A program made the position numbers and the translations under genes. A stretch of 64,000 nt of DNA from IMG/VR virus record IMGVR_UViG_3300009709_000001, positions 128,001 through 192,000 of that record; one strand, written 5' to 3'. Under the pieces are notes generated by a model, which worked only from the letters and a program-made list of their open reading frames with translations, was not told where the DNA came from and ran no database searches. Positions within the stretch are counted from its first letter, which is position 1; each line of letters starts with the position of its first letter. Shown in pieces: positions 16,387-46,092 of this stretch. This stretch comes from a virus. Taxonomy: Duplodnaviria > Heunggongvirae > Uroviricota > Caudoviricetes.

Positions 16387-16463
16387 TGGTGCGCCTTGTG
16401 GGATTCGAACCCACGGTCACGGATTTAGAGTCCGCTGCTTTAGGCCGGCTAAGCTAAAAGCGC
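16387..16463 (-). tRNA. amber suppressor tRNA (anticodon CTA)
   Basis: GCGGA-CTCTAAA-TCCGT, intact cloverleaf and CCA; own promoter TTGACA-17-TAAAAT at about 16477-16505. Confidence 0.9.
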
Positions 16464-20188: not shown

Positions 20189-20635
20189 TTAGAACGCAAC
20201 TTTTACGCCAGCCGAAACGGTATTGCCGTTATAAGCATTGACACGTGCCTGACCCTTCTGGTAAGCATAGTCACCAACAAGGGCAACATTCTTGGCGAGT
20301 GGGTACGAAACACCAACACCAAACAAACCAGCATAGCCGTCTGCACCCTTCGAAGGATCGATGTAAGCACCGCCGACTTTAACCGCTACGGTTGCACCAG
20401 CAACCTTGGCCACGTCATAAGAACCGACGAGGCTATAACGATTAGTATTCAGCTTGCCATCTGTGGAACGATCGAATGCAGCTTCTGCACCAAGGGCACC
20501 AAACTTTTCACCGACGGTAACGCCAGCGCTGTTCTTGTTGGTTCCGCCATTGTAGCCAACGCGGGCACCAAAGTCAGCAGCGGAGGCCATGCCAGCGGCA
20601 AGAGCCAGGGTTGCGATTAGAGCAATTTTCTTCAT
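20189..20635 (-). CDS. small outer-membrane beta-barrel protein
   Basis: Signal peptide, alternating beta-strand pattern, C-terminal Phe; promoter TTGACA-17-TATAAT at about 20676-20704. Confidence 0.75.
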   Translation of the reverse strand: MKKIALIATLALAAGMASAADFGARVGYNGGTNKNSAGVTVGEKFGALGAEAAFDRSTDGKLNTNRYSLVGSYDVAKVAGATVAVKVGGAYIDPSKGADGYAGLFGVGVSYPLAKNVALVGDYAYQKGQARVNAYNGNTVSAGVKVAF

Positions 20636-20722: not shown

Positions 20723-21067
20723 TTAAATATCGAATTTTCTACCTTTTGCCAAATTTTCTTTTGAAGGCAAATATTGCAAATTTTCTATGACATGAAGACC
20801 ACTTACAAATTCGCCATTTAGTGGAATAATGTGATCGACATGATATCCGATTGGGCAAGATAGATAAAATCTCTCAATTGTATCTAAATCTGACCATGGC
20901 GGTATTCTTTTTAACTTCGCTGCTCGTTCCTTTGCTGACTTGAGTTTAACCTTTTCAGGATATTTCTCTCGCCATTTTCTGTGGCGATCTTTATTTATCT
21001 TCAGATCATTTAATCGTTTTGCAACGATAGCTTCTTCGGGAGTGTGATACTTTCTTGGTCTCGGCAT
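20723..21067 (-). CDS. HNH endonuclease
   Basis: YHVDHIIPLNGEFVSGLHVIENLQ...EN. Confidence 0.8.
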   Translation of the reverse strand: MPRPRKYHTPEEAIVAKRLNDLKINKDRHRKWREKYPEKVKLKSAKERAAKLKRIPPWSDLDTIERFYLSCPIGYHVDHIIPLNGEFVSGLHVIENLQYLPSKENLAKGRKFDI

Positions 21068-21098
21068 AGGTAAAAGAATGGGAGCCGAAACTCCCATT

Positions 21099-21385
21099 GC
21101 TATTTTGGGTAACAAGGCATAACTGCCCCGGAGTGCTGTTAGGCGAATGCGACTTCGGCGTCTGCGAAAGCAGAGAGGTCGAAAGAAGCAAACTCGGTAG
21201 AAACGTTATTTGCGTTTACTTGGTTTGACGATTAACGATCGTTATTCGTGTTGTCTGCCTTGATACTTGCTACACTGTCGATTTCCGGAGGTCCCCCATC
21301 AAAAACACACAGAATGCGCTTTTGGTGGAGGACAGGGGATTCGAACCCCTTTCCAGCCCAGTTTTCTCTAAGCTTCATACAACAA
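21099..21385 (-). ncRNA. ssrA: two-piece (circularly permuted) tmRNA; tag ANNVSTEFASFDLSAFADAEVAFA at 21139-21213
   Basis: Acceptor piece ...GGGGTTCGAATCCCCTGTCCTCCACCA precedes GGGGGAC...TCGAC coding piece; TAAAC|GCA resume site; terminator at 21076-21097. Confidence 0.85.
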
Positions 21386-21425
21386 TAAAATTCAGGCGTT
21401 TGCCTTAGTCCCTATTATGCACTAC

Positions 21426-22094
21426 TTACCACATGATGTCAAAATTCCCACGCATAACCTGCTTAACACTGCCGGATTTGCCTGTAATGTGGTCTTTTAC
21501 AACATCATCTTGGAAACGATAGGTGCGAATTTTATCGCCCCTCATTCCCGAACCAACTTGCGATTTCCTCTCAACAGCGAGGCTAGCTTTCTTGTCTAAA
21601 TAATTTCCTTTTGTTAACTGTTCGATTAACGCCGCTTTAGCCTCTTCTAAACTGTTAACTCTAGACCTATGTTGAGCTGTGGCAATCTGTCCGGTTGGTA
21701 TATAAGTTATTCTACAAGAATTCTGATGCTTATTGCGATGTTGACCACCTGCACCAGTTCCGCTATACCATTCAATCTTAAAATCTTCATCCCTAAGCGT
21801 TAGTGTCGGAATTTCTGGATCGATAATTGCAACGGTTACGGTACTTGTATGAACTCTACCTTTTCTTTCTGTCGGTGGAATTCGTTGTATACGATGCCCA
21901 CCTGCTTCATTTTCAAGCATAGACAAATCATCGCCGATAACTTCTACAAAAACTTCACCGGCTACAGATTTAACTATGCGATTGATTCAGCCTACTCGAT
22001 CGCAATGCTTTTGATATGCAATTGCAAGATCAGATGCAAACAACTTGCTATCTTCTCCGCCTTCGGCTCCACGAATTTCAATTACTCTTTTCAT
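21426..22094 (-). CDS. RF1-like peptide chain release factor lacking domain 1, with in-frame TGA at codon 36 (21987-21989)
   Basis: MKRVIEIRGAEGGEDS...RVG*INR...EAGGHRIQRIPPTERKGRVHTS...GAGGQ...KIRTY; AAGGA SD before ATG 22094. Confidence 0.85.
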
Positions 22095-22677
22095 GATTTT
22101 TCCTTTCTTCAACTAGCCATGGTGCGAGTTTATCTAAACACGCATTCCACGATGGCATACTACCTTTCTCAAATCGTACTGTCAGGGCCCACCTGTCAGT
22201 ATCAGACAAATTTATCGAATGATGAAATACAGTACCGATATTAACTAATATCGGCCCTTTATCCTTTGTTTCATCAATAACGATAGCATCATCTTTCTCC
22301 AATTTAAGAAATGGGGTACTTTTTAGTTCACCATGAACGTGTGCGTCTTTCGGTGTAGTAGGAAATTCTATGCCATCGCGTGGTTTATACCAACGCATGA
22401 CATAATCATCACAAAAAATCCAGTTAATCGCTGCTCGAAATTCACCTACAGCACCATCTGTATGGATAGGCTGCACATCGACATAAGGAGCATGATGGAA
22501 AATCGAAGCACGAACTGGATTTAAATTTATGCTTCGAAAAAAATTTATTAGGGACGGATTTAAAATCTCGTCGGCACTATATTGAAATATTGACTGCTGA
22601 CAATCGCCACGAGGCATTACAAAATCATCTCGAAGCGGTGAAACAGGAATATCTAACAGTGCGTAGTGATCGGACAT
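22078..22677 (-). CDS. 2OG-Fe(II) oxygenase-like protein
   Basis: IHTDG, FHHS and DRW motifs. Confidence 0.6.
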   Translation of the reverse strand: MSDHYALLDIPVSPLRDDFVMPRGDCQQSIFQYSADEILNPSLINFFRSINLNPVRASIFHHAPYVDVQPIHTDGAVGEFRAAINWIFCDDYVMRWYKPRDGIEFPTTPKDAHVHGELKSTPFLKLEKDDAIVIDETKDKGPILVNIGTVFHHSINLSDTDRWALTVRFEKGSMPSWNACLDKLAPWLVEERKNHEKSN

Positions 22678-22829
22678 TGTCCTATTTATGCCATTAAAGA
22701 TGGCATTGCCGGAAGATGACAAATCTTCCTACACGTATTCGAATTTGCGATGCAGCGCAAACCCATGGAAGTGCTAATAACCCCTATCTGTAGTCTGCAA
22801 TGCCAGTTACAGTGTAACAGGTTGCATTT

Positions 22830-40092: not shown

Positions 40093-40168
40093 TGGCCGGC
40101 TAGGAACGACTCGAACGCTCAACCTTTGGTTTTGGAGACCACTGCGCTGCCAATTGCGCTACTAACCG
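40093..40168 (-). tRNA. tRNA-Trp(CCA) with 4-bp anticodon stem
   Basis: GTGGT-CTCCAAA-ACCAA, G27:A43 mismatch. Confidence 0.85.
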
Positions 40169-40261: not shown

Positions 40262-40338
40262 TGGCAGGGCGGGAGAGATTCGAACTCTCAACGTGCAATT
40301 TTGGAGACTGCTGTTTTACCAATTGAAACTACCGACCT
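40262..40338 (-). tRNA. tRNA-Trp(CCA) with U11-A24
   Basis: D stem GTTT/AAAC, loop CTCCAAA. Confidence 0.85.
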
Positions 40339-45907: not shown

Positions 45908-45997
45908 TGGTGGACCGTAATAGATTTGAACTACTGAAGCTCCTTGGAGCGCCGTCGTCAAATGACGGTGGGTTTGTCCGCTTCCCCTAACGGGTCC
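45908..45997 (-). tRNA. class II-bodied tRNA with TTG (Gln) anticodon
   Basis: CCGTC-ATTTGAC-GACGG, variable arm GCTCC/GGAGC, A73. Confidence 0.6.
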
Positions 45998-46003
45998 GTA
46001 AAA

Positions 46004-46092
46004 TGGCGGGGCCTGATAGATTTGAACTACCGTGATCTTAAAGATAGTCGATTTTGGAGGTCGACCGGGTTCGCCCGCTTCCCTAAGTCCCC
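46004..46092 (-). tRNA. class II-bodied tRNA with CCA (Trp) anticodon in an enlarged loop
   Basis: GTCGA-CCTCCAAAA-TCGAC, long variable arm, G73. Confidence 0.6.

Follow-up and report, generated by a model that had tools for sequence, protein, structure and literature searches.

An RF1-like gene with an in-frame UGA

We examined a release factor (RF) gene that is interrupted near its 5′ end by an in-frame TGA and lies on the minus strand of a 64,000-nucleotide (nt) window, the window being the whole stretch of DNA analyzed, positions 128,001 to 192,000 of IMG/VR virus record IMGVR_UViG_3300009709_000001. The record is a complete virus genome of 385,394 bp with terminal repeats (hereafter the 385-kb phage), and it carries 54 tRNA genes along with a permuted transfer-messenger RNA (tmRNA). 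Within the window, an ATG at 22094-22092 opens a 222-codon frame whose sole interruption is the TGA at codon 36, after which 186 codons lead to a TAA. The automatic list of open reading frames (ORFs) places the start of this gene at a TTG at 21926, giving a product of 166 amino acids; an earlier reading of the DNA made from its letters alone (the sequence-only reading) had moved the start upstream to the ATG at 22094, behind an AAGGA Shine-Dalgarno element, and both elements can indeed be read in the sequence. The parts of the gene are as follows.

22101-22105, minus strand: Shine-Dalgarno-like AAGGA, 7 nt 5′ of the start codon, read from the sequence
21990-22094, minus strand: codons 1-35 (ATG to GGC), for the part of RF domain 2 made up of a strand and helix alpha-5, with the conserved AEGG(E/D)DSKLF tip
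21987-21989, minus strand: in-frame TGA, codon 36, in the context GGC-TGA-ATC, the proposed recoding gate at the conserved RF1 Trp position
21429-21986, minus strand: codons 37-222, for the remaining domain 2, the PPT loop, domain 3 with GGQ, and domain 4
21426-21428, minus strand: TAA terminator (TAA in 75 of the 81 loci examined)

The sequence-only reading had recognized a class-I RF signature running into G-TGA at codon 36 (21987-21989), followed by PPT and GGQ motifs in a protein lacking domain 1, and each of these features was borne out. Codons 1-35 specify the class-I RF strand and helix (IEIRGAEGGEDSKLFA..L..AY) and end in GGC; PPT occupies residues 73-75 (21878-21870) and GGQ residues 116-118 (21749-21741). 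When translated through the TGA, the product matched two Pfam families above their cut-offs, namely the C-terminal half of PCRF (PF03462, last 90 model positions; residues 4-88, 77.6 bits) and RF-1 (PF00472; residues 98-202, 66.1 bits). The best NCBIfam model was RF1, which scored 182.8 bits against a cut-off of 400 and was matched over positions 107-333 of 347 only; since the match begins at position 107, domain 1 is absent. By profile, the factor scored 183 bits with RF1 and 105 bits with RF2, and the PrfH model TIGR03072 gave 36.7 bits against a cut-off of 166.65, from the GGQ domain alone, which leaves the factor outside PrfH. Solved RF1 structures from the PDB aligned to it at up to E = 3e-39, and in these alignments codon 36 stands opposite the Trp of "KGW" or "QGW", in agreement with the earlier placement of the TGA at the usual RF1 Trp position. 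The reading head is RF1-like (HRIQRIPPTE and RVHTST): a 28-sequence alignment shows no variation at Q70, P73, P74, T75 and H82 and has T83 in at least 90% of the sequences, and GGQ (residues 116-118) is invariant across the family alignment. Judged by these matches, the factor is an RF1-like, domain-1-less class-I RF and not a canonical prfA product, given its missing domain 1 and sub-cut-off score. Its codon specificity is predicted to be UAA/UAG without UGA, and with an RF1-type reading head it should not read the UGA gate in its own gene.

The TGA is conserved and reflects neither an error nor another genetic code

Relatives of the gene were gathered by scanning IMG/VR and the metagenome contigs of JGI and ENA, which returned several hundred loci. 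Scans with single distant proteins as queries (P0129 and P0130) gave almost no matches; scans based on alignments were productive. All relatives found are uncultured, and no cultured-phage relative above 40% identity was present among 50,697 phage records. Loci with at least 56% amino-acid identity to the gene of the 385-kb phage were taken as the core family, and those with 33-50% as distant lineages.

The sequence-only reading had named conservation of the TGA among related phages as a check. All 178 distinct coding sequences were found to have TGA as codon 36; they span 56-99% identity, come from independent assemblies and contain no other in-frame stop. Conservation to this extent is well outside what chance would give. 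At codon 36 the third base was A in all 161 homologues compared, while in invariant Glu and Lys codons the comparable two-fold A/G sites carried the minor base in 24-39% (122 A and 39 G at E6; 98 A and 62 G at K17), and synonymous sites in the core family were near saturation (proportion of synonymous differences, pS, ~0.73). The remaining Trp codons of the gene family were TGG without exception (338/338), and the layout of the core family was fixed: ATG, 35 codons, TGA, 186-190 codons and usually TAA. The alternatives that the sequence-only reading had kept beside its switch, a sequencing error or a simple TGG>TGA mutation, are ruled out by an invariant TGA amid freely varying synonymous A/G sites and by TGG at every other Trp.

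The protein database holds 98 "full-length" versions of 222-237 residues with Trp at position 36 (W36), all from contigs of at most 5.8 kb. Eight of them map exactly to loci with TGA, which rules them out as TGG variants; the W36 versions are apparently code-4 calls made by gene finders on short contigs. Gene calls on long contigs contain only the downstream ORF, of 164-186 residues. Public collections hold two wrong forms of the factor, a truncated one of 164-183 residues from long contigs and a 222-residue one with W for TGA from short contigs, and the practical lesson is that standard gene callers cut these genes short or silently adopt code 4 on short contigs. The 385-kb genome itself uses the standard code. 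Its coding density fits code 11, its long ORFs (at least 250 codons, n = 159) terminate with TAA (95), TGA (53) or TAG (11), and the other Trp codons of the RF gene family are TGG, which together rule out a genome-wide use of TGA for Trp. A rough screen of the 385-kb genome for other UGA- or UAG-gated genes, with Pfam run on 9 read-through translations of 7 candidate regions, gave no case of a domain that extends across a stop.

Both halves of the gene bear the marks of one protein

The ratio of nonsynonymous to synonymous differences (pN/pS) was 0.26 in codons 2-35, compared with 0.31 downstream of the TGA, and across 161 homologues many residues of codons 1-35 were invariant or nearly so while third positions varied freely. 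An AlphaFold model of the read-through product reached a predicted local distance difference test score (pLDDT) of 87 overall, with the strand (residues 2-11) and helix alpha-5 (residues 14-34) at ~90 or above. According to this model, residues 2-34 are integral to domain 2, and the alpha-5 tip belongs to the predicted stop-codon reading head. No conserved restart codon follows the TGA in the core family, and the nearest candidate in the 385-kb phage lies 21 codons on, inside the domain 2 sheet. The N-terminal piece and the remainder can become one chain only if the UGA is decoded or bypassed.

At the level of comparative sequence evidence, these observations demonstrate a gate that is real, ancient, selected and site-specific, in a gene whose two halves are constrained as a single protein. 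With TGA kept in 178 of 178 sequences, constraint on both sides and a full-length factor predicted, they lend support to the stop-codon-gated switch that the sequence-only reading had put forward.

The context of the UGA is that of a leaky stop

Stop contexts were counted in 77 representatives sharing less than 80% nucleotide identity. Directly after the TGA (+4), 59 of them had A, 12 had G, 6 had C and none had T, whereas +4 T was found at 58 of 155 genuine TGA stops of the 385-kb genome (Fisher p = 9e-13, a value that is overstated because the representatives are not phylogenetically independent, the direction being clear). Codon choice on either side of the gate was also skewed: the codon after the TGA was ACT in 36 of 38 Thr cases (background 33%), GCT in 12 of 12 Ala cases (background 25%) and, for Lys, AAG in all 8 cases, and the Gly codon before it was GGC in 54 of 76 (background 32%). 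By these counts, the gate has a leaky stop context that is apparently under selection. A U at +4 is known to reduce read-through, and UGA-C is leaky (PMC5289835).

No conserved RNA structure was detected around or after the UGA, RNAalifold returning 0 kcal in all 75-nt windows, which argues against both a selenocysteine insertion sequence (SECIS) and a structure-stimulated mechanism. The 33 nt 5′ of the TGA held no conserved Shine-Dalgarno-like or purine-rich element in the core family, and no CUU preceded the TGA. What the gene does combine are the sequence features of programmed read-through, namely a conserved in-frame stop, coding constraint on both sides and a leaky context.

Gated RF1-type genes recur in distant lineages and in huge phages

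In huge phages, profile searches revealed a broad superfamily of short RF1 genes of the PPT type. Gate types were counted in the best 80 loci per scan, out of ~470 IMG/VR homologues. Among the distant genes (33-50% identity), 16 had one in-frame stop, 7 had two, 6 were frame-split and 6 were uninterrupted. The in-frame stops lay at codons 37, 38, 40, 43, 45-47 and 50-51 and comprised 29 TGA and 1 TAG, followed at +4 by A or C only. One gene (L263) has TGG for Trp36, yet carries GGT-TGA-CTC four codons on. In the distant lineages, the Gln of the reading head was replaced by V, I, L or N, and the His by Gln.

In the six frame-split genes, the N-terminal part is in the -1 frame relative to the remainder. 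The four that were read as DNA have a prfB-like +1 frameshift cassette at codon 37, in which an SD-like GGAGG or AGGGG (SD, Shine-Dalgarno) is followed by a spacer of ~3 nt and then by CTT-stop-C; their joined products are 222-237 residues long.

L375:1144-1260: cggAGGtgt-CTT-TGA-C
L401:1516-1630: cggAGAtgt-CTT-TGA-C
L374:1510-1630: cagAGGGGt-CTT-TGA-C
L363:1510-1640: cggAGGcgt-CTT-TAG-C

The sequence-only reading had tied full-length synthesis to low RF2, and this link is strengthened by the prfB-type CTT-TGA-C cassette that sister lineages carry at the same place. Read-through gates and CTT-TGA-C gates share slow termination at UGA, so that in either case the product would be made when RF2 fails to terminate promptly. 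Across the lineages, the property under selection is, as far as these sequences indicate, an early stop that needs to be bypassed, nearly always UGA, rather than one particular codon.

Related genes are also present in published huge-phage genomes; the records of the gated 635-735 kb ones carry no annotation.

LR745206 (LR745206.1 48094-48738, L417), 635 kb: two TGAs
LR756502 (L418), 642 kb: one TGA
LR756501 (LR756501.1 358471-359127, L419), 735 kb, the largest: two TGAs
LR756504 (L420), 636 kb: one TGA
LR745208 (near 64000, L421), 485 kb: frameshift type, assigned from the change of reading frame alone
LR756511, 595 kb: uninterrupted

When five published huge phages were scanned, non-exhaustively, for a loop and T-arm pattern, no tRNA(UCA) was found, and no efficient decoder for the double gates. 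As a separate observation, ARAGORN predicted a tRNA with a four-base anticodon (ttta) in LR745208.1 (L431:2005-2079), the 485-kb phage that has the frameshift-type RF gene.

Candidate decoders among the phage tRNAs

The window contains three tRNA-Trp(CCA) genes and a tRNA(CUA), all on the minus strand.

40093-40168, minus strand: tRNA-Trp(CCA) copy 1, with a G27.A43 mismatch that leaves a 4-bp anticodon stem; candidate enhanced UGA reader (ARAGORN)
40262-40338, minus strand: tRNA-Trp(CCA) copy 2, with a 5-bp anticodon stem and U11-A24; the Hirsh-type UGA suppressor has A24 too, but as that base is common in nature this copy is a lead only
46004-46092, minus strand: tRNA-Trp(CCA) copy 3, 89 nt, drawn by ARAGORN with a long variable arm; its D stem has 3 bp, and the lowest pair of its anticodon stem, beside the loop, is a C31.A39 mismatch
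16387-16463, minus strand: tRNA(CUA) of the amber-suppressor type (ARAGORN)

A tRNA-Trp(CCA) whose anticodon stem has 4 bp raised UGA read-through ~2.5-fold in Escherichia coli, and such an unpinned stem occurs in 8.9% of bacterial tRNA-Trp(CCA); G24A is the classical UGA-suppressor change, and A24 is common in natural tRNA-Trp (all PMC13092985). In the relatives, tRNAs were counted in the tRNA arrays and listed outliers of the genome parts that were fetched. The RF gene is located inside the tRNA array in most relatives, and about 5 of 12 distinct tRNA-Trp genes flanking related loci have an unpinned anticodon stem. tRNA-Gln(UUG) at 45908-45996 adjoins copy 3 in the window; both are 89 nt long, far above the usual length of class I tRNAs.

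No tRNA(UCA) was found in the 385-kb genome. One relative of 524 kb has such a tRNA (G003:C1:190515-190588; L253:216-292), a normal 77-nt cloverleaf with G73, a short variable loop and an unpinned C27.A43, whose anticodon arm is that of tRNA-Trp copy 1 of the 385-kb phage except for the anticodon. No tRNA-Trp(CCA) was found in the parts of the 524-kb genome that were scanned, and BLAST detected no orthologue of its tRNA(UCA) in five other genomes, including the 385-kb phage. A universal association of the gate with a 4-bp-stem tRNA-Trp was not found: in the tRNA-array regions fetched, four complete relatives have only 5-bp stems, mostly with A24. The link to a phage tRNA-Trp suggested by the sequence-only reading has therefore held in part: the 4-bp-stem tRNA-Trp(CCA) and the tRNA(UCA) of one relative speak for it, and such tRNAs are not universal among the family's phages.

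Of the 6 complete genomes with a gated RF gene, 5 have a tRNA(CUA) (besides the 385-kb phage, G001, G002, G004:53129 and G005:174394). This tRNA would compete with the RF1-type factor at UAG, and we treat its relation to the gate as context only.

Neighboring genes

Directly downstream of the RF gene lies the tmRNA, an adjacency that synteny limits to the closest relatives.

21048-21415, minus strand: permuted two-piece tmRNA (ARAGORN; Rfam RF04321 tmRNA_permuted, 81.5 bits; beta_tmRNA, 77 bits, cut-off 84)

The beta_tmRNA match just below its cut-off hints at a betaproteobacterial host, and ARAGORN predicts a tag of 24 residues. Further along, 20189-20635 (minus strand) encodes a small protein that has a signal peptide and resembles a porin or outer-membrane beta-barrel (Pfam Porin_4 at 27.8 bits, OMP_b-brl weakly), which points to a Gram-negative host. 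On the other side, an ORF of 214 residues at 22078-22722 (minus strand) without a Pfam match overlaps the start codon of the RF gene by 17 nt, such that translational coupling is possible; by eye, its "IHTDG" stretch resembles 2OG-Fe(II) oxygenases.

Competition between RF2 and UGA decoding as the proposed mechanism

We propose, with a probability of roughly 0.68, that competition between termination by RF2 and decoding of the UGA sets the yield of the phage factor, in the manner of a prfB-like gate that acts in trans on an RF1-type paralogue. A ribosome starting at the ATG at 22094 would reach the UGA at codon 36, where action of RF2 would free a 35-residue peptide and leave no factor. Should a tRNA-Trp decode the UGA first, Trp would be inserted and the 222-residue factor finished. 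The decoder would be a near-cognate CCA tRNA, either that of the host or any of the three phage copies. As Trp is the RF1 residue at this position, its insertion would restore the residue found in other RF1 proteins. RF2 activity is favored as the variable that is sensed because frameshift-type lineages exist, and the phage tRNAs would be modifiers of the gate in some genomes.

Regarding the use of such a gate, the phage would most likely add UAA/UAG-termination capacity when RF2 is low relative to decoding, or after its tRNA array has been expressed, and would otherwise keep the factor scarce. When RF2 becomes limiting, the RF1-type factor would be made and could take over UAA, the stop that ends 95 of the 159 long ORFs, freeing RF2 for UGA; it would also oppose the amber-suppressor tRNA(CUA) of the phage. 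We infer Trp insertion, dependence on RF2 and this physiological purpose from the evidence above. An extension that we regard as doubtful is a cascade over two stop codons, in which the UGA gate sets the level of the RF1-type factor, the factor contends with tRNA(CUA) at UAG, and UAG read-through switches elsewhere are thereby closed or tuned. If this were true, huge phages would have evolved a trans-acting controller of "termination balance", rebuilt repeatedly as read-through or prfB-like frameshift gates.

Several observations weigh against a competition between RF2 and UGA decoding. Without a downstream stimulatory structure, read-through may be merely basal, at a few per cent or less, and the seven distant genes with two TGAs imply a very low yield unless an efficient decoder is present. 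The special features of the tRNA-Trp genes are not universal among phages that have the same gate. In two distant genes (L346 and L363) TAG takes the place of TGA, and where the distant lineages have their TGAs, ungated homologues have a residue other than Trp. Finally, an RF1-like factor would give no feedback on a UGA gate, and that cross-regulation by RF2 would be of benefit is argued rather than observed.

Alternative explanations

One alternative is autoregulation, in which the phage factor itself recognizes UGA, being omnipotent or of altered specificity, and the internal UGA or CTT-TGA-C cassette provides negative feedback in the style of prfB. The cassette of the sister lineages does mirror the RF2 autoregulatory site, with its SD-like GGAGG, 3-nt spacer and CTT-TGA-C, and feedback through a factor's own stop is the known logic of both prfB and the Mimivirus RF gene (PMC3521657). 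TAG in two distant genes would be tolerable for a factor that reads all three stops, and the replacements of Gln and His in distant reading heads show that specificity is not fixed across the superfamily. Against this, the RF1 determinants (H-R-I-Q-R-I-P-P-T-E and R-V-H-T-S-T) are intact in the whole core family, and the RF1 profile outscores that of RF2 by 183 to 105 bits. RF1-type heads moreover exclude G at the second position of the stop codon. We consider autoregulation unlikely on this evidence.

A second possibility is a timer driven purely by tRNA, such that the gate opens as a UGA-reading phage tRNA accumulates, the level of RF2 is not the variable, and the factor is a delayed product of the tRNA array. 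The position of the gene within the array in most relatives fits this idea, as do the three unusual tRNA-Trp(CCA) genes of the 385-kb phage, the tRNA(UCA) of the 524-kb relative, which shares the anticodon arm and occurs with no tRNA-Trp(CCA) in the parts scanned, and the share of unpinned stems among flanking tRNA-Trp genes (~5/12, compared with 8.9% in bacteria; PMC13092985). However, four complete gated relatives have only tRNA-Trp(CCA) with 5-bp stems and no tRNA(UCA) in the tRNA-array regions fetched, the frameshift-type sister genes require no tRNA-Trp, and A24 is widespread in natural tRNA-Trp. A timer of this kind strikes us as rather improbable.

That the gene is simply broken or split, whether as a pseudogene, through an assembly error or as a source of two products (a 35-residue peptide and a restarted protein), would account for the 164-186-residue downstream ORF being all that gene callers report from long contigs. 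This we hold to be very improbable, given that all 178 independent sequences keep the TGA, that purifying selection acts on either side of it, that no conserved restart lies near the stop, and that the downstream part alone would be without the alpha-5 tip of the reading head.

The chance that the UGA encodes selenocysteine is negligible: UGA does serve as the Sec codon, and the tRNA(UCA) of the 524-kb relative is given the label "SeC" by ARAGORN, but no conserved hairpin follows the UGA, where a bacterial SECIS sits immediately downstream, the aligned RF1 residue is Trp and not Cys, and the tRNA in question is an ordinary 77-nt cloverleaf, not a tRNA-Sec, with none in the 385-kb genome. Equally remote is a phage or host that reads TGA as Trp throughout (code 4), for which the 98 W36 "full-length" database proteins might be cited, since 8 of these map exactly to TGA loci, TGA terminates a third of the long ORFs, the other Trp codons are TGG and, in the rough screen, no other domain spans a TGA.

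Comparison with known systems

Recoding gates in RF genes are known from bacterial prfB, Mimivirus and plant eRF1, and in these cases the factor senses its own activity. Competition between RF2 and UGA decoding at the phage gate would differ in that the factor should not read the stop codon that gates it, and it concerns a large and ecologically widespread group of huge phages, in which the gate has apparently arisen anew at several codon positions and in two mechanistic forms, including in published genomes of 485-735 kb. If true, it would be the first case in which the activity of one termination factor, or a viral near-cognate tRNA, controls the synthesis of the other. It would also provide a natural and compact sensor based on UGA read-through or frameshifting, and would assign a concrete role to two puzzling features of huge phages, their tRNA-Trp variants and their suppressor tRNAs. 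Full-text searches of the literature turned up no account of phage RF1 genes with such a gate.

Read-through of UGA by tRNA-Trp is familiar from the A1 protein of phage Q-beta and from leaky UGA codons in E. coli and Bacillus subtilis. The likeness lies in the contest between a near-cognate tRNA-Trp(CCA) and RF2, modulated by the following base. In those cases, however, read-through extends a complete protein at its C-terminus, whereas the phage stop lies inside an essential domain toward the N-terminus, and the terminated product would have 35 residues. In organisms with reassigned UGA, including Zinderia (Fakih et al., 2026, PMC13092985), tRNA-Trp shares with phage copy 1 the unpinned 27:43, a 7-nt loop, A9 and G24; there, however, UGA is reassigned genome-wide, while in the phage one codon of one gene would be read, and the tRNA feature is absent from several phages with the same gate.

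Short class-I RF relatives that have GGQ and no domain 1 are also known, namely PrfH (RF-H) and ArfB. ArfB is without the codon-reading domains 2 and 4, whereas the phage factor retains the full RF1 reading head. That huge phages encode RF1 or RF2, suppressor tRNAs and tmRNA is stated in Al-Shayeb et al. (2020, PMC7162821), whose passages on release factors, tmRNA and stop codons make no mention of internal stops in the RF genes. Stop-codon-recoded phages (bioRxiv 10.1101/2021.08.26.457843; PMC7162821) appear similar in that the meaning of a stop codon is used for regulation; unlike them, the 385-kb genome keeps the standard code, with recoding apparently confined to the RF gene.

The closest viral counterpart is the class-I RF gene of Mimivirus and Megavirus (R726/mg280), whose translation involves a single frameshift and a single read-through event (Jeudy et al., 2012, PMC3521657). 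In both systems a giant virus has a termination factor of its own, gated by internal stops, in what is the virus's sole clearly recoded gene, and read-through and frameshifting both occur. The Mimivirus factor is of the eukaryotic/archaeal eRF1 type, belongs to a virus of amoebae and reads all stops, so that self-regulation is possible, whereas the phage genes are of the bacterial RF1 type, lack domain 1 and use one mechanism per gene.

In bacterial prfB, as in the phage gene, a class-I RF gene is interrupted early by a UGA, and completion of the product requires that RF2 fail; sister lineages of the phage gene even have a nearly identical cassette (cggAGGtgt-CTT-TGA-C). In the phage gene itself, however, the UGA is in frame, the frame being unchanged across the TGA, and it is preceded by GGC, which indicates read-through rather than a shift, the hallmarks of the frameshift class being absent. 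The UGA also lies in domain 2, at codon 36, and not in domain 1. Because the phage factor is apparently of the RF1 type, the loop would close in trans, with RF2 controlling an RF1 paralogue, in place of the self-feedback of prfB.

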